The position numbers were made by a program, and so were the translations under genes. The notes under the pieces are model-generated. The model had not been told where the DNA came from, searched no databases, and saw only the letters and a program-made list of their open reading frames with translations. Source: an uncultured Gammaproteobacteria bacterium (lineage in GTDB: Bacteria; Patescibacteriota; Patescibacteriia; Magasanikbacterales; GWA2-37-8). Taken from it: a stretch of 64,000 bases of DNA. Below are positions 3,320-37,640 of the stretch, in pieces (position 1 is the stretch's first letter; each line of letters starts with the position of its first letter). The stretch covers positions 203,978 to 267,977 of the forward strand of contig CAYOXC010000001.1 in assembly GCA_964407865.1 (NCBI GenBank), written 5' to 3'.

Positions 3320-3330
3320 GAGTGAGCGAC

Positions 3331-3499
3331 GGGGAGCGACCAAACTGCTTTGGTCGCGTGTGGGATGAGAACGCCGGAGCGATGTCGCGCCGACTTTGCT
3401 GGGAGGCGCGACCGCGAGGCGGTGGCTAGACAAAATTTTCGGAAGAAAATTTTAGTCGAAGCCGAATCCCTAATAGCGAAGCGCCCACCCCCGGAGCAT
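3331..3499 (+). repeat. structured repeat element C, copy 1; candidate ncRNA embedded in a tRNA-Asn-like frame
   Basis: A ~110-nt core (3370-3470) matches 37490-37590 at roughly 90% identity. It has a conserved 7-8-bp GC stem (gtcgcgc[c]...[g]gcgcgac) and an aaaatttt/aaaatttt hairpin with a c/tGGAAg loop. A compensatory change occurs between copies (gac..gtc versus ggc..gcc). A 9-bp hairpin precedes the core. The 3' end repeats the tRNA-Asn terminus cccacccccggagc. Confidence 0.5.
3484..3499 (+). repeat. partial direct copy of the tRNA-Asn 3' end (att-like scar), copy 2
   Basis: cccacccccggagc is identical to tRNA-Asn 3275-3288. It is followed by its own terminator hairpin. Confidence 0.6.
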
Positions 3500-3535: not shown

Positions 3536-3589
3536 TATTCTGAGGATGCGGGATGAGAAGTTTATACCCCGAGAGCGAAGCGGAGGGGT

Positions 3590-3606
3590 AAATCCCACCC
3601 CCGGAG
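3590..3606 (+). repeat. partial direct copy of the tRNA-Asn 3' end, copy 3 (with a core-deleted C-like flank at 3545-3589)
   Basis: aatcccacccccggagc. Preceded by gggatgagaa...gcgaagcg, which parallels the flanks of C copy 1. Followed by the hairpin at 3614-3647. Confidence 0.55.
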
Positions 3607-3613
3607 CAAATAA

Positions 3614-3647
3614 AATAGCATGGATTTATCCCATGCTATTTTATTTT
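3614..3647 (+). terminator. rho-independent terminator
   Basis: Hairpin tagcatgg-atttat-cccatgcta followed by ttttatttt. Confidence 0.65.
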
Positions 3648-7792: not shown

Positions 7793-8510
7793 ATATATTC
7801 CTCCTTACTTTTTTATTGATTGCTAAAATGAAACCCATATTTTTATCAAATTTTGAAGGATATGTCTGCACGCTAAAACCGTTTTTACGCATTATCTCTT
7901 CAAGATTTCTGTGTTGATTCTTTTTAAAGTCATGATACTCAAAAATCATTGATGAAATTTTTTTAAATACTTTTTTTGGCCATGCCGATATTATGTGATT
8001 TTCAGCGCCTTCTATGTCCATTTTTAATACATCGATCATATTTTCACTACAATCCTCCAATAAATTCTCCAAGGTAATTGTTTTGACTTTTATAATTTTA
8101 CCAGAATTTTCAGTAAGCGATTTATCAGCGGAAAATATCAATCTATGATTATGACTATCTTTTGATACCAAAAAATTTCCAAAACCATTTTCTAAAGAAA
8201 GTGCACATTTAAGAGTCTTAATGCTAGATATGTTGTTAACCAATAAATTTTCCTTTAAAATTTTGTAATTTTCATTTTCTGGCTCTACTGCAATTATCTT
8301 AACTTTGCTATTTAATGCATTACAATAAAGCGAAAAAAGCCCAATGTGCGCTCCTACATCGATAATTAATCTTTTTGCGTTGATGATATACGGTTCAGCG
8401 GCGCGATACTCTCTGAATTTAAAAATTTCATTTGAAACACTTTCAAAAGCTGTTTTTCCTGGATTAACCTTAAAACGTCGCCCAAATTTAGCGATATTTA
8501 TATATGGCAT
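7782..8510 (-). CDS. FkbM-family methyltransferase
   Basis: IDVGAHIGLFS and LKMDIEGAE motifs. Confidence 0.8.
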   Translation of the reverse strand: MPYINIAKFGRRFKVNPGKTAFESVSNEIFKFREYRAAEPYIINAKRLIIDVGAHIGLFSLYCNALNSKVKIIAVEPENENYKILKENLLVNNISSIKTLKCALSLENGFGNFLVSKDSHNHRLIFSADKSLTENSGKIIKVKTITLENLLEDCSENMIDVLKMDIEGAENHIISAWPKKVFKKISSMIFEYHDFKKNQHRNLEEIMRKNGFSVQTYPSKFDKNMGFILAINKKVRRNIYDK

Positions 8511-8610
8511 ATTTATAACAACTTAATTATATCATCAATTTTATCAATAACAAAACCGGGATAAACCCGGTTATGTATAAATAAGGTGCAGAAGAAACAG
8601 GTCGGGGAGG

Positions 8611-9048
8611 CTACATGTCCACAAGAATAACATCTAACACAGAAAGTCTGCGATTCAGGTGACCGCGGAAAGTTGAGGCCTGGTCTTCTACCCAGATCAA
8701 CTCGGAACTAACATGAGAAAGCTGATCTGGGTCACAGCGGTCGTTTGAACAAAGACTAACATCGTTCAGCTGATCAATCAGCCGATTAATACCGGAATAT
8801 TTTACACGACCCCCCCTCTTAATTCTGGCATCATGAATTTGAACGATGATATTTGCACACTCTGCTCCAATTACATCCAGCAATGCTACCAACTCACTGA
8901 AGCTATTCGCATAACCATTCAGTGAATCCTTGGCTTGACTGGTAAAACGACTTATTTCAGACACTGCTCTTTCCAGCTCAAACAATTTTTCTTTCTTGCC
9001 AATATGTTTCCCCCCTGATTTTTTTATCTTCTTTTTTTCTTTTTTCAT
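8611..9048 (-). CDS. hypothetical protein with a Lys-rich N-terminus; locally elevated GC
   Basis: ORF 8611..9144 trimmed to the start MKKEKKK, because the longer form overlaps tRNA-Gln. No recognisable family. Confidence 0.4.
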   Translation of the reverse strand: MKKEKKKIKKSGGKHIGKKEKLFELERAVSEISRFTSQAKDSLNGYANSFSELVALLDVIGAECANIIVQIHDARIKRGGRVKYSGINRLIDQLNDVSLCSNDRCDPDQLSHVSSELIWVEDQASTFRGHLNRRLSVLDVILVDM

Positions 9049-15314: not shown

Positions 15315-15387
15315 GGTCCGGTAGCTCAGCTGGTAGAGCAGTTCCCTTTTAAGGAAAAGGTCCTGGGTTCGAATCCCAGCCGGATCA
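15315..15387 (+). tRNA. tRNA-Lys (anticodon TTT)
   Basis: Acceptor ggtccgg/ccggatc, D-arm gctc-agctggta-gagc, anticodon loop ctTTTaa, T-arm ctggg-ttcgaat-cccag. Confidence 0.85.
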
Positions 15388-15449
15388 CAAAATAAAACAC
15401 TCTCGTTTTGCGAGGGTATTTTATTTAGAGAGTCGGTTTGGTGAGAACC
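15371..15449 (+). repeat. 79-bp direct repeat, copy 1 (tRNA-Lys T-loop to 3' end plus downstream terminator)
   Basis: 78 of 79 bases identical to 15550-15628. Confidence 0.85.
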
Positions 15450-15549
15450 CACAAAGGATGTATGTTCAAGAGTTATTTGTCTAAAAGTGATATACGTTGA
15501 TTTGCAGATTTGACCTCGGGAGGTTTTCCTCAAGGGGGCTTGCCCCATC

Positions 15550-15628
15550 GAATCCCAGCCGGATCACAAAATAAAATACTCTCGTTTTGCGAGGGTATTT
15601 TATTTAGAGAGTCGGTTTGGTGAGAACC
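15550..15628 (+). repeat. 79-bp direct repeat, copy 2 (att-like duplication of the tRNA-Lys 3' part)
   Basis: gaatcccagccggatcacaaaataaaatactctcgttttgcgagggtattttatttagagagtcggtttggtgagaacc. Confidence 0.85.
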
Positions 15629-15658
15629 AATAAAGGACTAATTTATTGTCAGAATAAA

Positions 15659-31745: not shown

Positions 31746-31819
31746 CGGGGTATAGCTCAGTTGGCTAGAGCGCATGCATGGGGTGCATGAGGCCGCAGGT
31801 TCAAGTCCTGTTACCCCGA
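31746..31819 (+). tRNA. tRNA-Pro (anticodon GGG)
   Basis: Acceptor cggggta/taccccg, anticodon loop atGGGgt. Confidence 0.8.
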
Positions 31820-31825
31820 CTAAAA

Positions 31826-31849
31826 AACCGGCCCATGGCCGGTTTTTTG
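31826..31849 (+). terminator. rho-independent terminator
   Basis: aaccggcc-catg-gccggtt followed by tttttt. Confidence 0.75.
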
Positions 31850-31850
31850 A

Positions 31851-32159
31851 TTATTCACCTATTGTTTCTTCATTTTTTATTTTTTCTTCAGCTAATTCTA
31901 TCGCTTCTTTAAAGAGCTTGACTGTCGCGTCTCTGTTTAAATCAAGTGTTCCAAAAGCACTTCTTAGTTCAGGACGAGCAATAATAAAAGCCATGATATC
32001 ATTGTCGTTTTCAACAGAAGGAAACTCCTTATGTTTATTAAAATAAACTACGAAATCGTCTGCCAGTACCTTTTGCATGTTATCTATTTTTGATTGTCTT
32101 TTCTCGACTATTTCAGCTGCAATCCGGCCGGCTGATGTTTCTTTATTAAAATCTGACAT
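31851..32159 (-). CDS. hypothetical 102-aa protein between the two tRNA-Pro genes
   Basis: ORF with acceptable coding composition. No recognisable family. Confidence 0.4.
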   Translation of the reverse strand: MSDFNKETSAGRIAAEIVEKRQSKIDNMQKVLADDFVVYFNKHKEFPSVENDNDIMAFIIARPELRSAFGTLDLNRDATVKLFKEAIELAEEKIKNEETIGE

Positions 32160-32258
32160 ATTAATTAAAATTAATTATAAATTGTATTTTAGAGTATGCT
32201 ATCAAAAATATATAAAATTGACAACGGGCAATATTTATAATACAATATGGCAGATTTT

Positions 32259-32332
32259 CGGGGTATGGCCTAATTGGCTATGGCGCACGCTTCGGGAGTG
32301 TGAGGTTCCGGGTTCGAGTCCCGGTACCCCGA
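32259..32332 (+). tRNA. tRNA-Pro (anticodon CGG)
   Basis: Acceptor cggggta/taccccg, anticodon loop ttCGGga, T-arm ccggg-ttcgagt-cccgg. Confidence 0.8.
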
Positions 32333-32462
32333 CTAAACGGATGTCAAGTGGCAGATGCGGCGGGATTTTGTCACTTCTGTGTATAAGTCACATCGGCAAA
32401 TCGCATTTCTGCCATCTTAGCTACCGTTTGAAATTAAAAAACACCGTTTTTCGGTGTTTTTT
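32333..32462. repeat. repeat B, copy 1 (structured about 130 bp, ends in a bidirectional terminator hairpin)
   Basis: gtcaagtggcagatgcggcgggattttgtcacttctg...aaaaaacaccgtttttcggtgtttttt. About 75-80% identical to 34912-35042. Confidence 0.75.
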
Positions 32463-32493
32463 GAATTTTGTTAAATACTATTGCTTTTTCAAT

Positions 32494-33258
32494 TTACAGT
32501 CGTCTCTCTAATAATTTTTTTTGATCCTTGGCAAAAACCTCCGGATCAGGATTGTTCCAATTGAATTCATTGAATATCTGCATCGTTTTTTCTAAAGATA
32601 GATTAGCGTATTTATCAACCAATTCATCTACACAATATTGGCTTTTTAATACGATAGGGTTGTATTTACATGTATATGCATTAAATAACTCGCGAAAACC
32701 GTGATCCCAAAAACATAAAGTTCGATTTTTAACACCATGCAATTCAATAATAATTTCGATATTACTATTTCTGTCCAGAGATATATTTTCTATCATTTTC
32801 TTAGTAAATAAATATATCTCCGTAACACTATATAGGGCATTTAATACCGATAGATATTTGTTATCAATGGTTTTATCTTTCAATTTTGAAAAAACATAAG
32901 AATTAGCCAACTCTTCTTTTTTTTCCTCGGTCATTCGATAATCCTCGAGCATTGAAAAAAAATGAATAAATTGTCCATCTTGATAGTATTGCCAATATTC
33001 TAAATGCCCCATGTCCGGCCAATTTTCAAGCGACATAACGCTCGAATGAGGCGCCGCTTCAATACCACTTTCACGATTGATGTGCGGATAATCCCAACCT
33101 CTTAGTCTTATATTACTTTTAGTAATAACCTCCTTTAACTCCGGAGTCGTTTTAATTCTTATATCTACACGCTCTACTGGCCGAACGATAATTTTCCAAT
33201 ACCCTTTCTTTTTTATTGTTTCTAATAAATTAATAGACATATATTTAACTAATTTCAT
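32494..33258 (-). CDS. hypothetical protein (cassette 1, gene 3), translationally coupled to the AlbA_2-like gene
   Basis: 254 aa. TAATG stop/start overlap with the upstream gene. No recognisable domain. Confidence 0.55.
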   Translation of the reverse strand: MKLVKYMSINLLETIKKKGYWKIIVRPVERVDIRIKTTPELKEVITKSNIRLRGWDYPHINRESGIEAAPHSSVMSLENWPDMGHLEYWQYYQDGQFIHFFSMLEDYRMTEEKKEELANSYVFSKLKDKTIDNKYLSVLNALYSVTEIYLFTKKMIENISLDRNSNIEIIIELHGVKNRTLCFWDHGFRELFNAYTCKYNPIVLKSQYCVDELVDKYANLSLEKTMQIFNEFNWNNPDPEVFAKDQKKLLERRL

Positions 33259-33980
33259 TATAACAGGCCATCTCTCTTTAGCTCTTTCTCATATTCCTCT
33301 TTAAAGCGAATAGAACTAATTTTTTGAACTGCCTTTTTACTTCGTTTTCCCTGTATTAATCTAGAGCATATAAGATGTAAATCGCTGTTTACTATTTCTT
33401 CTCTGTAACCCAGTAGCCTCGTAACTAGCGCTTTCCACTCTTCGGGTTTTTCAACAGATTTAGACTCGACAGGGTTATTTGCGCGTATATAAACTGACCC
33501 ATGTTTCAAATAATAGGTTTCACGTCGATTCTCTATTATTATTTTATAGTCTTTCTTACATATAACCGGTTCTGAACTATTTGCCTCCAAAATTTGTAAA
33601 ACAATAAATTTCTTTTCCTCGCCCTGCAACTCAACGTTGCCACCGTATAACTTTAATTTGACCGTATCATACAGATATCCATTAATGAATCTGCTAATAT
33701 TATCGATATTATTAAATGAATTGAAATCTTCAACAGTTAAGCCAATTCGTTCAAACTCTTCTGCCTGGCCTTCTCCTCTACCAGGTTGCTTAATTCCTAT
33801 ATAAATATTTCCACCATTAACTGTATTAGCAAAAGCTGTAACAGCTTTAATAACTTCTCCCTTTATACATCTTGAACCTTCGTCTCTGGCACTCCAATTA
33901 AACGGCGGCTTAAATTCAATATTCAAATCTTCACTTCCATATTCAATTGTATTAATCATGTTATCAGTTAACGTCTCCAT
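33258..33980 (-). CDS. AlbA_2 / Schlafen-like putative DNA-binding domain protein (cassette 1, gene 2)
   Basis: N-terminal E..LEFK...AFANT.GG.IYIGI pattern characteristic of the AlbA_2 (Schlafen-like) domain. Confidence 0.55.
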   Translation of the reverse strand: METLTDNMINTIEYGSEDLNIEFKPPFNWSARDEGSRCIKGEVIKAVTAFANTVNGGNIYIGIKQPGRGEGQAEEFERIGLTVEDFNSFNNIDNISRFINGYLYDTVKLKLYGGNVELQGEEKKFIVLQILEANSSEPVICKKDYKIIIENRRETYYLKHGSVYIRANNPVESKSVEKPEEWKALVTRLLGYREEIVNSDLHLICSRLIQGKRSKKAVQKISSIRFKEEYEKELKRDGLL

Positions 33981-34023
33981 ATAAAATGCATTCTTACTTA
34001 ATCAAACATCAATAAAAACTCCT

Positions 34024-34689
34024 TTATAAAATATTACTTTTCCCCAAATTGCATTTTGAACATAATGTCTGTAGATTTTCCAACACAGTTTCACCGTTTC
34101 CGCTCCACGGTTCAATATGGTCAATGTGAAGAACCACACTCTGATCCGTTGCAGGACTTCGACCACATTTTTTGCATGCAAAATTGTCTCTTTTTAAAAC
34201 CTGGTAACGCAAACGCAAAGAAATATCCCGAGGAGTCTTCTTGATCTTTGTAATAGTAGTTTTTTTCTTTAATTTAGATATATCTAGTCCACCGACGTAT
34301 TTGATAAATTCTTTCACCGCCGCGGACCATGAGCCGAATCTTTTTTTATAAGCGCTGGCCTTAATCATCGAAATAGATGAATCCATATCGCCTTGTCTGG
34401 GTTGCTCACCCTTTTTCTGCCAAACCATTAATAGATTGTTAAACAAATCTTCATTTGAATGGCGGCTAATCTTGGCTACACCTAATCCGGCCTGCGCCAA
34501 GGCTGCGTTCCAGGTTCTAAATCGACGTTTTATGCTAGTGGAGCTATATTTGCCGTTTTTATTATAAATCTCCTGGGACAAAGAATCGACTTTTAGTTTT
34601 TTAGCAACCACTTGCAAATCCTTAATTAAGTCTGATGATTTTACAGGTTGATTTGGTGGTGGTATATAAATTATACTATCTGACGACAT
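34024..34689 (-). CDS. HNH endonuclease with two N-terminal homing-endonuclease-associated repeats (cassette 1, gene 1)
   Basis: C-terminal HNH motif CKKCGRS...HIDHIEPWSGNGETVLENLQTLCSKCN. Two KRRFRTWNAALAQAGL / KKRFGSWSAAVKEF repeats. Confidence 0.75.
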   Translation of the reverse strand: MSSDSIIYIPPPNQPVKSSDLIKDLQVVAKKLKVDSLSQEIYNKNGKYSSTSIKRRFRTWNAALAQAGLGVAKISRHSNEDLFNNLLMVWQKKGEQPRQGDMDSSISMIKASAYKKRFGSWSAAVKEFIKYVGGLDISKLKKKTTITKIKKTPRDISLRLRYQVLKRDNFACKKCGRSPATDQSVVLHIDHIEPWSGNGETVLENLQTLCSKCNLGKSNIL

Positions 34690-34706
34690 ATATTTGATGT
34701 TTTGAG

Positions 34707-34911
34707 TATTATGCCACCCGGTCCTAAGAGCGTCAATTACAGCGGTGGTAAGATTCCGGTAGCTGACAATCTGAGATAAACCTCCCGAACACTGTCCAAG
34801 AAATTGAATACGTTAAACAACCCATCTTCGGTGAACAAAGTGGCACCACCTTTTTTGCCCAACATTAGCGGATCTGGTTTTTTCGGTTCGAGAAATACGT
34901 AATCAGGTCGA
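34707..34911. repeat. repeat A, copy 1 (about 200 bp). Carries a minus-strand promoter and ends in a degraded tRNA-Pro 3'-like segment
   Basis: About 95% identical to 37204-37409. The 3' end ggttcgag...gactaaa parallels the tRNA-Pro T-loop to 3' end. Confidence 0.8.
34708..34736 (-). promoter_or_regulatory. sigma70-type promoter (TTGACG, 17-bp spacer, CATAAT) driving cassette 1
   Basis: Minus strand reads ttgacg-ctcttaggaccgggtgg-cataat. The ATG of the HNH gene lies 18 nt downstream of the -10 element. Confidence 0.65.
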
Positions 34912-35042
34912 CTAAAAGGGTGTCAAGTGGCAGAAGCGGCGGGATTTTGTCACTTCTGGGGATAAGTCATATTGAAAAATAAGCATTTCCGCCGTCTAAG
35001 ATACTGTTTGAAATAAAAAACACCGTTTTATGGTGTTTTTTG
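34912..35042. repeat. repeat B, copy 2 (terminator-bearing)
   Basis: gtcaagtggcagaagcggcgggattttgtcacttctg...aaaaaacaccgttttatggtgtttttt. Confidence 0.75.
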
Positions 35043-35975
35043 GTTATTTATAGCTTTTCTTACCTCATCAATTGTTAAAGGTGGATATTTCAAGTGAATT
35101 ACTCTATGACAATTTGAACAAATCAACAAAATATCTTCAACTGAAGTAGTTTCTCCTTCTTTCATAGACGCAACCGGCTTAATATGGTGTCCCTCTATAT
35201 AATTTTGAGCCAATGAACCATATCTGTCCCTAAATGAAAAACCACATATTTCACACCGCAATTCTCCACTTTTTCGCAAAGCAATACTCTTTGCTTCTTT
35301 AACTATCTTTGCATTTCGTTCCCTGGTGTAATGCTTGATTAACTTTCGTTTTCCTTCTTCAACTTGACCGATGGATGTTCTGAAATCAGTGTCACTTGTT
35401 AAGAGATTGCTGTTAGCCAGATACTGATCATAAAATGCTACAACCTTTTTCAAATCATCAACCAACTCTTCATTATCCGGCATATTTGCCAAGCGATATT
35501 CCTTGTAATAAATAATTGGTTCTTCATAATCGGAACCCAGTCCTTTATCCGCAATTTTTGCTTTATCATCGGACTTGAAGCCTGCTAATTGATAATTTGC
35601 TCTAATATTTATTGCCTTAGCCTTTAATTTACTAAATGCGAGTTTTCTACCGTCGTTTTTGATAGGTTTGGTGATTCCTTGCCCAAGACATAAATACAAT
35701 CTCTTGAAATCTGTTGAGTATAGATAAACAACGTAAACACCTTCTTGTGCTCCGTCTGTTTCATTCTTGTTAAAAATACCTATCCAAGGAACTGAGGTCC
35801 AATTACCCATACCAGCAGAACCTTTTATCGTAAAATCTTCTTCCCTTATTATTGGAGAAATAATTTTTTTACTTTCTTCTCTAATAAATTTAGCTAGGGG
35901 GTGATTTGTAAATGGCTCGTTTGATGCAATTGGATATTTTGACCCAATTTCGCTCAATAACTCTCTAAGAGTCAT
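35028..35975 (-). CDS. McrB-N-like (DUF3578) domain fused to an HNH endonuclease; putative type IV (modification-dependent) restriction nuclease (cassette 2, gene 3)
   Basis: N-terminal FTIKGSAGMGNWTSVPWIGIF...GVYVVYLYS (DUF3578 / McrB N-terminal-like). C-terminal HNH motif CEICGFSF...GHHIKPV...CSNCHRVIH. Confidence 0.7.
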   Translation of the reverse strand: MTLRELLSEIGSKYPIASNEPFTNHPLAKFIREESKKIISPIIREEDFTIKGSAGMGNWTSVPWIGIFNKNETDGAQEGVYVVYLYSTDFKRLYLCLGQGITKPIKNDGRKLAFSKLKAKAINIRANYQLAGFKSDDKAKIADKGLGSDYEEPIIYYKEYRLANMPDNEELVDDLKKVVAFYDQYLANSNLLTSDTDFRTSIGQVEEGKRKLIKHYTRERNAKIVKEAKSIALRKSGELRCEICGFSFRDRYGSLAQNYIEGHHIKPVASMKEGETTSVEDILLICSNCHRVIHLKYPPLTIDEVRKAINNQKTP

Positions 35976-36017
35976 ATAAAATATATTTAATAATTTCTTT
36001 TTTTACGCTTTTGTTCA

Positions 36018-36788
36018 CTAATGAGTAGTTGCCTTACACCAATAACACTTTATTTGATGATCTCTTTTTTTCAGATTTTTTAGCCACACCTCATCATGTG
36101 TAGAATCAATCATTAAGTGTTCAATCAACATTTCAATTCTCTCAAGTAATTCTTTTCCAAGAACTGGGCCTTTTTTTAATAAATCTTCATAGTCCCAGCG
36201 ACTTGATAATAGGTGGTGAATAAGATGGTTACGATACTGATAAAATATTAACATCTTCTCAACCAAATTATAGGGTTTCCATATTTTATTACTCGTACAT
36301 TTTGATAGAATATCACTCATAGTTCCAAGAGTTAATCCACATGTATCAACTAAAAAATACGCATTAAAAAGAACATCATCTATTTTTTTAATTTTTGCGG
36401 ATTTTTTTTTATGTTCATAGAACTTATTACGCAAATATGCGTTCGCCTTTCTGATATTCAATTCCCCATCCTTTGTCCATTTTTGATAGCGACAAATATG
36501 GTTCAATATTTTGTCCCTTGATTGTTTTGCATCTAATTTGCCAGTCTCATACAAAGCTTGTAAAAGCGCACAGACTTCATGCTCAAGTAAAATATTGACA
36601 TTAAATAATTGATATTCAAGCCAATATGTAGTCATCTGTTTATCCGCTTTTGTTTTATCTAGGCTCTTTTCTAAACTACCGAAACTTTGTTCCTCTTTAA
36701 TTCTATTCGCCCAATAAAATCGATCAAAACCAGTAATAAATTTTTTATCACTATGCCTTCTTCCTTTAATTTTTTTATTTTTTGGCAT
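36018..36788 (-). CDS. hypothetical protein with a HEPN-like Rx4H motif (Abi-like) (cassette 2, gene 2)
   Basis: 256 aa. A YRNHLIHH segment fits the HEPN R-x(4-6)-H motif. No other recognisable similarity. Confidence 0.45.
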   Translation of the reverse strand: MPKNKKIKGRRHSDKKFITGFDRFYWANRIKEEQSFGSLEKSLDKTKADKQMTTYWLEYQLFNVNILLEHEVCALLQALYETGKLDAKQSRDKILNHICRYQKWTKDGELNIRKANAYLRNKFYEHKKKSAKIKKIDDVLFNAYFLVDTCGLTLGTMSDILSKCTSNKIWKPYNLVEKMLIFYQYRNHLIHHLLSSRWDYEDLLKKGPVLGKELLERIEMLIEHLMIDSTHDEVWLKNLKKRDHQIKCYWCKATTH

Positions 36789-36798
36789 AGAAATACTG

Positions 36799-37173
36799 CT
36801 ACTTATTCAAAATAAATCGTTTAAGTTTCTCTAGCACTCCCAATTCGCTATCTTTGATGTCCTTATGGCGTTTTCGAGCTGCTACAGCTAAAGCATCGGC
36901 GATTTTATCGAGATATTTATCGACTATAATATTAGGGATATGAATCGTGTCGTAATCGTCACGAGTAATTGACCAATAACTTCTATCAAAGTCAGAAATA
37001 ATTTGTTCTGGATCAGTATAATGGTGAATACCATCAACTTCTATATCAATTCTGGCCCAAGGAATAGTTAGGTCTATATGTTTATCTTCATCCCACTTTT
37101 CAAGTTCACAGTATATTTTCCTCTGCCTCAGGGCATTGAAAAGACTCTGGGCCTGCGGGGTCGGATTTGGCAT
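36799..37173 (-). CDS. DUF559 / Vsr-like PD-(D/E)xK endonuclease-domain protein (cassette 2, gene 1)
   Basis: ORF trimmed to the start MPNPTPQ, downstream of promoter A2. IDIEVDG...D motif pattern typical of DUF559 restriction-endonuclease-like domains. Confidence 0.5.
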   Translation of the reverse strand: MPNPTPQAQSLFNALRQRKIYCELEKWDEDKHIDLTIPWARIDIEVDGIHHYTDPEQIISDFDRSYWSITRDDYDTIHIPNIIVDKYLDKIADALAVAARKRHKDIKDSELGVLEKLKRFILNK

Positions 37174-37203
37174 ATTGCTTAAATATTTTGGATTTAATGT
37201 CTT

Positions 37204-37409
37204 TATTATGCCACCCAGACAAATGAGCGTCAATTACAGCGGTGGTAAGATTCCGGCAGCTGATAATCTGAGATAAACCTCCCGAACACTATCTAAGAAA
37301 TTGAATACGTTAAATAACCCATCTTCGGTGAACAAAGTGGTACCCTCTTTTTTGCCCAAGATTAGCGGATCTGGTTTTTTCGGTTCGAGAAATACGTAAT
37401 TAGGTCGAC
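37204..37409. repeat. repeat A, copy 2
   Basis: About 95% identical to 34707-34911. Confidence 0.8.
37205..37233 (-). promoter_or_regulatory. sigma70-type promoter (TTGACG, 17-bp spacer, CATAAT) driving cassette 2
   Basis: Minus strand reads ttgacg-ctcatttgtctgggtgg-cataat. Confidence 0.65.
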
Positions 37410-37446
37410 AATTTAAGAATCGCCGAAAGGCGATTTTTAAATTGGA

Positions 37447-37603
37447 GGGGTATGGCCGAATGAAACTATTCATTCGGCCAAGGGACTCGAACGCCGGAGC
37501 CATGTCGCGCGAGTTTGCTGACGAGCGCGACGGCGAGGCGGTGGCTAGGCAAAATTTTTGGAAGAAAATTTTAGCCGAAGCCGAGTCCTCCCGGTACCCC
37601 GAC
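37447..37603 (+). repeat. structured repeat element C, copy 2, embedded in a tRNA-Pro-like frame (5' ggggtatggcc, 3' tcccggtaccccgac)
   Basis: 5' and 3' ends match tRNA-Pro(CGG). The interior is replaced by a 9-bp hairpin plus the ~110-nt C core shared with 3370-3470. Confidence 0.5.
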
Positions 37604-37606
37604 AAA

Positions 37607-37640
37607 AATAATACCGCCATTTTGTGGCGGTATTATTTTT
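37607..37640. terminator. bidirectional hairpin terminator
   Basis: aataataccgcc-attttgt-ggcggtattatt, flanked by an A-run and a T-run. Confidence 0.7.

Follow-up and report, generated by a model that had tools for sequence, protein, structure and literature searches.

Introduction

Cis-mobilizable elements (CIMEs) and their tandem accretion at the 3′ ends of tRNA genes have been described (PMC5704250), and in the streamlined genome of Prochlorococcus, serial integrations and decayed remnants form tRNA-linked islands, the tycheposons (bioRxiv 10.1101/2020.12.28.424599). Bacteria of the candidate phyla radiation (CPR, Patescibacteria) have tiny genomes, and their gain of defence genes is poorly documented in the literature searched here. 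We analyzed a 64 kb stretch (the window) of a Magasanikbacteria (CPR) genome, in which a block of six genes, referred to as the island, stands immediately behind tRNA-Pro(CGG) and separates it from a structured RNA termed C2. The island comprises two modules, each bordered by one copy of a repeat A and one copy of a repeat B. By analogy, it would be a variant of the known tRNA-linked accretion islands; the C2 RNA is the more surprising object of the two and the newest item in the region. The locus was singled out by an original prediction made from the letters of the DNA, whose observation is confirmed here and whose first interpretation, serial integration of cassettes at a tRNA gene, is partly supported.

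Insertion of the island behind tRNA-Pro(CGG)

The following features frame the island.

31746-31820, plus strand: tRNA-Pro(GGG), detected by ARAGORN and Rfam, with a two-way terminator directly after it
31851-32159, minus strand: orphan open reading frame (ORF) of 102 aa between the two tRNA-Pro genes
32218-32246, plus strand: promoter-like site TTGACA-17-TACAAT (11 of 12), just 5′ of tRNA-Pro(CGG)
32259-32333, plus strand: tRNA-Pro(CGG), detected by ARAGORN and Rfam; it ends in CGAC (32330-32333), the left junction of the island
37418-37438, plus strand: terminator-like hairpin aatcgcc-gaaa-ggcgatt followed by TTT

The neighbouring CCA-adding enzyme served as the query to collect 57 Candidatus Magasanikbacteria (CPR) loci, the closest of which encode enzymes with 66–72% protein identity to that of the window. 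Six relatives (L005, L007, L008, L022, L054, and L058) exhibit the order CCA enzyme, PilT, tRNA-Pro(GGG), tRNA-Pro(CGG), (terminator), and C2-like RNA, with a gap of only ~10–40 nt between tRNA-Pro(CGG) and the C2-like element. In L008, GPI-like and rfb genes come next, as in the window, and the tRNA-to-C2 interval carries no insert. Repeats A and B and all six cargo genes are absent from the 57 related loci. Since the six relatives keep the gene order without the block, positions 32334-37409 represent a lineage-specific insertion of 5,076 bp that starts directly behind the final base of tRNA-Pro(CGG). Excision of this block in silico yields CCCCGAC/AATTTAAGAATCGCCGAAAGGCGATTTTT (the slash marks a join) and restores the succession of tRNA, terminator, and C2. 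The rebuilt empty site, CCCCGAC/AATTTAAGAATCG, in which the tRNA-Pro 3′ end is followed by AATTTAAG.., is similar to the corresponding site of L009, CCCCGAC/AATTTAAAATCCG. In comparison with L009, L005, and L058, the hairpin at 37418-37438 is read as the putative ancestral terminator of tRNA-Pro(CGG), now located 5 kb from its tRNA. The insertion parts tRNA-Pro(CGG) from this terminator as well as from the conserved tRNA-trailing RNA C2.

As in integrase-type tRNA islands, the site is a tRNA 3′ end and the block is missing from the orthologous site of the relatives. The tRNA-derived attL/attR repeats of at least ~15 bp that characterize such islands are lacking, as the borders share only CGAC, and no tyrosine or serine recombinase gene lies in or beside the island. 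The original prediction had proposed a layout of serial att duplications, based on an exact 15-nt copy of the tRNA 3′ end at the far side. While the position at tRNA-Pro stands and the copy is present at 37589-37603, the latter belongs to C2, which is older than the island, and the proposed layout therefore falls. A prophage or plasmid origin was also considered and rejected: the island had no blastn match among 50,697 phage and 72,556 plasmid records, and PHROGs families were matched only by its HNH domains.

Two further arrangements were observed at these tRNA genes. The interval 31821-32258, which consists of the two-way terminator, the 102-aa minus-strand orphan ORF, and a promoter-like site (32224-32196), splits the tRNA-Pro pair, which is adjacent in most relatives (spacing of 60–130 nt), and forms another small self-contained expression unit directly after a tRNA. 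In L007 (6528-8025), two tRNA-Pro(CGG) genes lie 1.35 kb apart, and the upstream one is a hybrid with a CGG-type body and a GGG-type 3′ end from the T-loop on (..GTTCAAGTCC/CGCTAGCCCGAC), which looks like recombination inside the T-loop.

Modular anatomy of the island

The island is built from two head-to-tail modules, 32334-34912 (2,579 bp) and 34913-37409 (2,497 bp), each consisting of B, three minus-strand genes (ORF groups 32494-34689 and 35028-37173), and A.

32334-32463, plus strand: repeat B1, now the 3′ trailer of the tRNA, ending in a two-way terminator (32434-32464)
34707-34912, no strand assigned: repeat A1, with a minus-strand promoter (34736-34708) and a distal end, GGTTCGAG..GGTCGAC, that resembles the tRNA from T-loop to 3′ end
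34913-35042, plus strand: repeat B2, with a two-way terminator (35014-35042)
37204-37409, no strand assigned: repeat A2, with a minus-strand promoter (37233-37205); its GGTCGAC end forms the right island junction

Sequence comparison bore out two copies of each repeat around unrelated three-gene cassettes beside tRNA-Pro(CGG), and each repeat occurs exactly twice within the window. The A copies differ at 15 of 206 nt (34707-34912 versus 37204-37409), an identity of 92.7% that replaces the first estimate of about 95%, while the B copies (32330-32463 and 34909-35042) are 86% identical. The predicted transcription signals were also found. In each A, the sequence TTGACG-17-CATAAT, whose -10 box is of the extended type (TG), forms a promoter on the minus strand; both score 10 of 12, which ranks them within the top four promoter-like sites of the region. 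A GC-rich terminator hairpin flanked by an A-run and a T-run closes each B, so that termination can act both ways. In this arrangement, a sigma-70-type promoter at the cargo side of A would drive the three genes, and the terminator of B would halt the cargo operon and at the same time restore termination for transcription reading in from the tRNA side. Each module would thus be a self-contained transcription unit.

At the junctions, the tRNA ends in ..GGTTCGAGTCCCGGTACCCCGAC, A ends in ..GGTTCGAGAAATACGTAATYAGGTCGAC, and B begins with TAAA. The first junction reads CCCCGAC/TAAACGG.. (tRNA to B1), the second ..AGGTCGAC/TAAAAGG.. (A1 to B2), and the third ..AGGTCGAC/AATTTAA.. (A2 to flank), with the A side ending in GGTCGAC in the latter two; all three have only CGAC in common. 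The final 28 nt of A, GGTTCGAG-N16-CGAC, parallel the GGTTCGAG-N11-CGAC of the tRNA. The internal partial tRNA postulated at the A1/B2 border shrinks to these elements, GGTTCGAG plus CGAC, inside repeat A. The start of B resembles natural tRNA-Pro flanks, which begin with TAAAC.. in L005 and L006 and with TAAAA.. after tRNA-Pro(GGG).

Other roles for the repeats were tried and rejected. A is not a structured RNA, as its folding z-scores are positive on both strands. Nor is it a recognizable gene fragment: its 57-codon minus-strand frame had no homologue in a word-indexed search and retrieved only itself with phmmer among 1.84 billion proteins. Six of the 10 substitutions between A1 and A2 in this frame fall at third codon positions, which is merely suggestive. 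B1 is well folded (z = -6.6), yet B2 does not maintain this long stem, compensatory changes and consensus boxes are absent, and an attC-like or IS200-like hairpin was accordingly discarded. Repeat A also contains GAACAAAGTGG (34832-34842 and 37329-37339), comparable to the motif GAAC(G/A)AAGTGAG found in spacers before C2-type elements; this may be a coincidence.

The short-read Logan contigs of the same population that cover the locus (L001–L004 and L069–L071) all stop inside repeat A, as might be expected if two strain alleles of one island had been falsely joined through their shared repeats. However, L069, from an independent Logan assembly, runs from cargo 2 through B2 and the junction into an A with the A1-specific base (CCTGATT), and L001 runs from the GPI-like gene through C2 into an A with the A2-specific base (CCTAATT). 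Furthermore, two alleles would predict a tRNA/B2 join rather than A/B2. Since L069 crosses the A1/B2 junction in an independent assembly, the tandem order is not an assembly artefact, and false joining has next to no chance of being the explanation.

Origin of the modules

The two modules abut end to end exactly at a tRNA end, which argues for a site-directed process rather than unequal homologous exchange; the tRNA-like end of A and the tRNA-flank-like start of B likewise point to site-directed insertion. The account we favour, tentatively and as quite possible rather than probable, is that the modules are non-autonomous integrative elements of one family that entered serially by site-specific recombination at the tRNA 3′ end. 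The first and the second module would have entered one after the other, with the crossover in or beside CGAC, where the end of A (GGTTCGAG..CGAC) would imitate the tRNA from T-loop to 3′ end. The recombinase would have been supplied in trans rather than encoded nearby. In this scheme, CIME-like elements would have accreted in tandem. At present the modules seem to be fixed and private to the lineage, and it is from their anatomy and junctions that we infer a recombination mechanism and past mobility.

Several observations weigh against serial site-specific entry. The 4 bp of CGAC are short for the overlap of a tyrosine recombinase. As the original prediction had stated, neither a recombinase nor a transposase is present among the 62 window ORFs of at least 90 aa; for this check, the island proteins were compared with Pfam, NCBIfam, PADLOC, and PHROGs, and the window ORFs were inspected by eye, with the ten least obvious searched against Pfam. 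No further copy of A or B was detected in the 57 related loci, in a wider set of 192 fetched loci (blastn), or in the phage and plasmid records, and the searches returned nothing beyond terminator-like chance matches. Exact-block probes (one block each from A, the A end, and B for viral contigs; a single B block for JGI metagenomes) detected neither repeat, and no version of A or B with an integrase occurred in anything searched. All six cargo proteins are singletons when ~15 billion sequences are clustered at 90% identity, with no sign of recent spread, and the cargo G+C of 0.31–0.38 is not atypical of the genome's genes (0.373 ± 0.03). Neither an excised circle nor a read from an empty site was seen.

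The recurrence of CGAC at all three junctions and the absence of an integrase also suit a non-autonomous transposon family that inserts into CGAC at the end of the tRNA and duplicates this 4-bp target each time, so that two successive insertions would yield CGAC-module-CGAC-module-CGAC. We consider this quite improbable: terminal inverted repeats are missing from the modules, subterminal structure is absent from A (z > 0), B2 does not preserve the long stem of B1, no transposase occurs in the window, and the three-junction match is partly forced because A itself ends in CGAC.

Serial site-specific entry brings the island close to the accretion described for CIMEs and ICESt1 (PMC5704250), with which it shares the tRNA 3′-end site, the absence of integration genes, the head-to-tail arrangement, and the newer element beside the tRNA. 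In contrast, CIMEs keep attL/attR direct repeats and descend from integrative and conjugative or integrative and mobilizable elements, whereas the island borders share only CGAC and the island has no known relative among such elements. Its units are only 2.5 kb long and carry their own promoter and terminator. The island has neither integration nor transfer genes, and its att sites are unrecognizable beyond CGAC and the GGTTCGAG mimic; no relative of A or B that could speak for CIME descent was found in the related loci, viral contigs, JGI metagenomes, or phage and plasmid records. It resembles tycheposon remnants (bioRxiv 10.1101/2020.12.28.424599) in being a tRNA-linked variable island of a streamlined genome, with remnants that lack an integrase, older units pushed outward by serial insertion, and defence and adaptive cargo. 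Tycheposons, however, possess a tyrosine or large serine recombinase, a replication module, and partial-tRNA flanks of ~40 nt, none of which is present here. The ordered, co-oriented cassettes with unrelated cargo, recurring boundaries, and no integrase nearby are reminiscent of integron arrays, in particular of clusters of attC sites lacking integron integrases (CALINs), a likeness that had been drawn at the outset and does not hold. On direct reading, the attC consensus (RYYYAAC/GTTRRRY) is absent, and no attC sites (R''-L''..L'-R', GTTRRRY core) occur at the cassette ends; there is no intI, and the hairpin of B is not conserved. Moreover, instead of promoterless cassettes under Pc, the island contains three-gene operons at a tRNA end, each with its own TTGACG-17-CATAAT promoter and terminator.

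Cargo proteins

The six cargo genes are all on the minus strand.

34024-34689, minus strand: module 1 gene 1, HNH endonuclease of 221 aa with two homing-endonuclease-associated repeats (Pfam)
33258-33980, minus strand: module 1 gene 2, SLFN_AlbA_2 domain protein (Pfam)
32494-33258, minus strand: module 1 gene 3, 254-aa protein without family match, overlapping partner of the AlbA_2 gene
36799-37173, minus strand: module 2 gene 1, 124-aa protein whose fold weakly resembles Vsr/DUF559
36018-36788, minus strand: module 2 gene 2, 256-aa orphan
35028-35975, minus strand: module 2 gene 3, 315-aa protein with MrcB_N (former DUF3578) and HNH domains (Pfam)

Profile scans upheld the HNH, AlbA_2/Schlafen, and DUF3578-HNH labels given to these proteins at first. 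In the 315-aa protein, MrcB_N (E = 1.9e-49, 168 bits) and HNH (E = 5e-9, 36.5 bits) both score above the Pfam cut-offs, accompanied by a weak PADLOC match to mREase_IV. This fusion of an MrcB_N reader to an HNH nuclease is, as predicted from its domains, a type IV methyl-directed restriction architecture. It resembles the type IV enzymes that combine an McrB-type N-terminal reader with HNH; unlike Mcr systems, it would act as a single-chain fusion without the McrB GTPase or McrC.

The AlbA_2 and 254-aa genes overlap by one base (ATG/TAA at 33258). The pair also occurs in three unrelated settings (next to aspS, next to DpnI, and within a type III restriction-modification/AAA_15 cluster), which makes it a portable two-gene unit that does not include the HNH gene. 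AlbA_2 genes adjoining or overlapping genes for 240–254-aa proteins were seen in L062, L064, and L066, from uncultured (partly CPR) genomes. The 254-aa protein gave a model with a mean predicted local distance difference test score (pLDDT) of 93.3 and no significant fold match in the Protein Data Bank (PDB); its PADLOC match to PtuA (E = 0.001, 16.5 bits) is weak and was treated as not meaningful. We regard the pair as a candidate uncharacterized two-gene defence or toxin-antitoxin unit.

The remaining labels fared less well. The 256-aa protein had been called HEPN-like, but this assignment, whether by a HEPN profile match or by an Rx4-6H motif in a helical fold, was not borne out; searches of Pfam, NCBIfam, PADLOC, PHROGs, and PDB sequences returned no match, and the one homologue of the protein, 45% identical, stands alone in another CPR genome. 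For the DUF559-like label of the 124-aa protein, there is a weak Foldseek hint: a DUF559-type endonuclease (3hrl; E = 0.15, probability 0.84) is the best match of a model with pLDDT 68.6, followed by non-significant matches to I-Bth0305I and Vsr, and no family in Pfam, NCBIfam, PADLOC, or PHROGs is matched. Consequently, the description of the cargo as defence-type nucleases is solid only for the MrcB_N-HNH protein; the AlbA_2 pair lies near restriction genes elsewhere, and the others are uncharacterized.

In each module, the first gene behind the A promoter encodes what may be a small free-standing nuclease: the 221-aa protein contains two PF18780 HNH_repeat domains (E = 3e-22) plus HNH, and the 124-aa protein is possibly Vsr/I-Bth0305I-like. 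This arrangement would suit intronless homing, in which the nuclease would cleave incoming or sister DNA at an empty tRNA-Pro/C2 junction and double-strand-break repair would then copy the module, with the conserved tRNA and C2 flanks as homology arms. Neither an integrase nor att sites would be needed, in keeping with the lack of a recombinase in the 64 kb, and a homing endonuclease, SegB, is located in the tRNA gene cluster of phage T4. Nevertheless, we regard homing as unlikely, since it leaves the shared A/B ends and the exact CGAC abutment of both modules unexplained, the nuclease assignment of the 124-aa protein is weak, and HNH domains are equally typical of restriction enzymes.

Unrelated cargo between the same borders had also suggested a cassette-exchange hotspot, in which A and B are fixed landing pads, cargo is swapped by homologous recombination, and the tandem results from unequal exchange between alleles. 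The portability of the AlbA_2 pair, found near restriction genes in its three other contexts, and the variation of the locus between related species are in line with this proposal. Unequal homologous exchange, however, cannot make an exact join between the end of A and the start of B that shares only CGAC. The borders were expected to flank other cargo in related genomes, yet alignment with the 57 loci revealed neither repeat, and A and B are known only from this genome. The cargo proteins are singletons, and the Logan contigs that carry them derive from a single series of four runs (SRR14492170-73) that presumably belongs to one study; they show the same cargo and no alternative. Thus, the shared borders with unrelated cargo are retained, their generality is not (n = 2 in one genome), and cassette exchange is a doubtful origin for the tandem.

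C2, a tRNA-trailing structured RNA family

Beyond the right junction of the island lies C2, of which the window contains a second family member.

37443-37603, plus strand: C2 structured RNA, with a 5′ strand of acceptor type, one hairpin, a core that contains a three-way junction, and the copied tRNA-Pro 3′ end
37604-37640, plus strand: C2 terminator with a 17-bp stem
3324-3497, plus strand: second copy of the C2 RNA family, behind tRNA-Asn(GTT), ending in a 14-nt copy of the tRNA-Asn 3′ end

C2 has a folding z-score of -10.4, its 3′ end is the exact 15-nt copy of the tRNA-Pro 3′ end, and its core is 88% identical to the tRNA-Asn copy (3324-3482). Since a C2-like RNA adjoins tRNA-Pro(CGG) in the six island-free relatives, C2 predates the island; an integration scar of the island was accordingly rejected as its origin. 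For nine copies from the window and the relatives, RNAalifold revealed a structure with compensatory changes in 26 of 45 pairs. A degenerate two-block pattern matched at least 120 metagenome stretches, and a covariance model identified 66 copies in the loci searched. In the alignment of these copies, 92.7% of the cells pair, as compared with 71.5% in shuffles, double changes occur in 39 of 45 pairs, and the covariation score of 0.50 exceeds those of shuffles (0.16) and of slid controls (no more than 0.11); this alignment was fitted to the model, and the controls and the independent MAFFT result agree with it. U·G pairs are abundant on the tRNA-sense strand (for example, UG 46 and UA 15 at one pair), which suggests that the RNA and the tRNA are transcribed from one and the same strand.

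The family is tied to tRNA genes. A same-strand tRNA lies within ~120 nt upstream in 60 of 75 copies, with ~20 amino-acid identities represented. The 3′ end of the element repeats the last 19–21 nt of the neighbouring tRNA, with the left border fixed at C56 of the T-loop (median 19, n = 47), and in 10 of the 47 cases the repeat runs at least 15 nt into the tRNA terminator. In the examples that were read, the 5′ end often matches the 5′ acceptor strand of the tRNA and could therefore pair with the copied 3′ strand. In the closing stem, the copied T-loop and T-stem bases pair with their complement, followed by the conserved GAAC/GCCGGAG. Among the copies for which a matching tRNA was found, only the window C2 lies several kilobases from it (5.1 kb), which again marks the island as an intruder; some of the other copies without an intact tRNA within ~120 nt have a partial tRNA fragment directly upstream. 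A recombinase that travels with these RNAs was sought and rejected, as the clustering of 433 neighbouring ORFs from 62 loci revealed no recurrent protein family.

C2 is not a known RNA according to Rfam 15, ARAGORN, and the phage records. No Rfam 15 model matched it with E ≤ 1 apart from chance-level matches on the terminator, neither ARAGORN nor Rfam RF00005 detects a cloverleaf, and no tRNA-trailing RNA of CPR bacteria was found in the literature, whose incomplete coverage makes this no proof of novelty. With tRNA-like RNAs such as the tRNA-like domain of tmRNA, YrlA, and mascRNA, C2 shares an end helix resembling an acceptor stem, a tRNA-identical 3′ end, and a location beside tRNAs. In contrast to them, it escapes ARAGORN and the Rfam tRNA, tmRNA, and YrlA models, one hairpin stands in for the D and anticodon arms, the position of the T-loop is occupied by a core of ~100 nt with a three-way junction, and its ends match the upstream tRNA. 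As a working idea, C2 might be a tRNA-like minihelix that shares transcription or processing with the tRNA.

The att sites of tRNA genes reportedly fall into sublocation classes, one of which is a T-loop type. The duplicated block of C2, which spans 19–21 nt from the middle of the T-loop (C56) to the tRNA 3′ end, is like such att repeats, and a DNA-level origin of the elements as T-loop-type att remnants would explain it. However, the stretch from tRNA to repeat is only ~160 nt, and this origin leaves unexplained the RNA-type covariation with tRNA-sense G·U pairs, the co-evolution with the neighbouring tRNA across species, and the absence of an associated integrase in more than 60 loci.

Related arrangements were seen at other positions. 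The tRNA-Asn copy (3324-3497) has its own terminator and is closer to the tRNA-Pro(GGG)-linked copy of L008 (88% over 137 nt) than to the window C2, a kinship that hints at movement between tRNA loci. It is accompanied by a mini-element, X2 (3540-3645), in which GGGATGAGAAG and a short hairpin are followed by 17 nt copied from the tRNA-Asn 3′ end and by a terminator; X2 keeps the T-stem/GAGAA motif of the family without the core, and tRNA-Asn is trailed by three units of tRNA 3′ end plus terminator in series. At 15371-15630, tRNA-Lys(TTT) is followed by an 80-nt direct repeat (18 nt of the tRNA 3′ end, terminator, ..GGTGAGAACC) that encloses ~100 nt of unrelated, AT-rich sequence. This region escapes the C2 model and may represent a different core in the same tRNA-trailing arrangement. 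L006 is closely similar to L005 (~8480-8750) and lacks the C2-type core, keeping the tRNA terminator and the first ~15 nt of the element (GGATGGGTGGGGCCGAG..). This state looks like a deletion between the long direct repeats of the element, and the presence of the RNA is polymorphic. In L008, L054, L113, L124, and L129, the terminator-free spacer between tRNA and element often reads GAAC(G/A)AAGTGAG. The C2-type RNAs of L077 (~1190-1390) and L137 (415-639) have no intact tRNA upstream and are preceded by a homologous small antisense ORF (..GDDV..EP..IKELR..HPEWFE.P.P.S..GKNE.DY) abutting a 9-nt tRNA-like 3′ end; a relationship of the repeat A peptide to this ORF was rejected for lack of similarity.

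Implications

For the CPR bacteria, the locus precisely documents the states before and after a gain of 5 kb at the end of a tRNA gene with no integrase in reach, in which the gained units bring their own promoter and a terminator that would repair the tRNA transcription unit. Short copies of tRNA 3′ ends are unreliable as att scars in these genomes. The C2 family is widespread, strongly covarying, and absent from Rfam 15, and it tracks the identity of the neighbouring tRNA. That C2 is a functional mimic of the tRNA end, whose 5′ strand and closing stem serve as address segments matched to the 3′ 19–21 nt of the preceding tRNA, and that the tRNA/C2 junction is also an integrase-independent entry for A/B-type modules, is improbable as a joint proposal; if true, the RNA and the junction would constitute an undescribed system of gene acquisition or tRNA-locus maintenance in CPR bacteria. 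If functional, the C2 family would be a tRNA-like RNA of a new type, helpful as a marker for the ancestral structure of tRNA loci.

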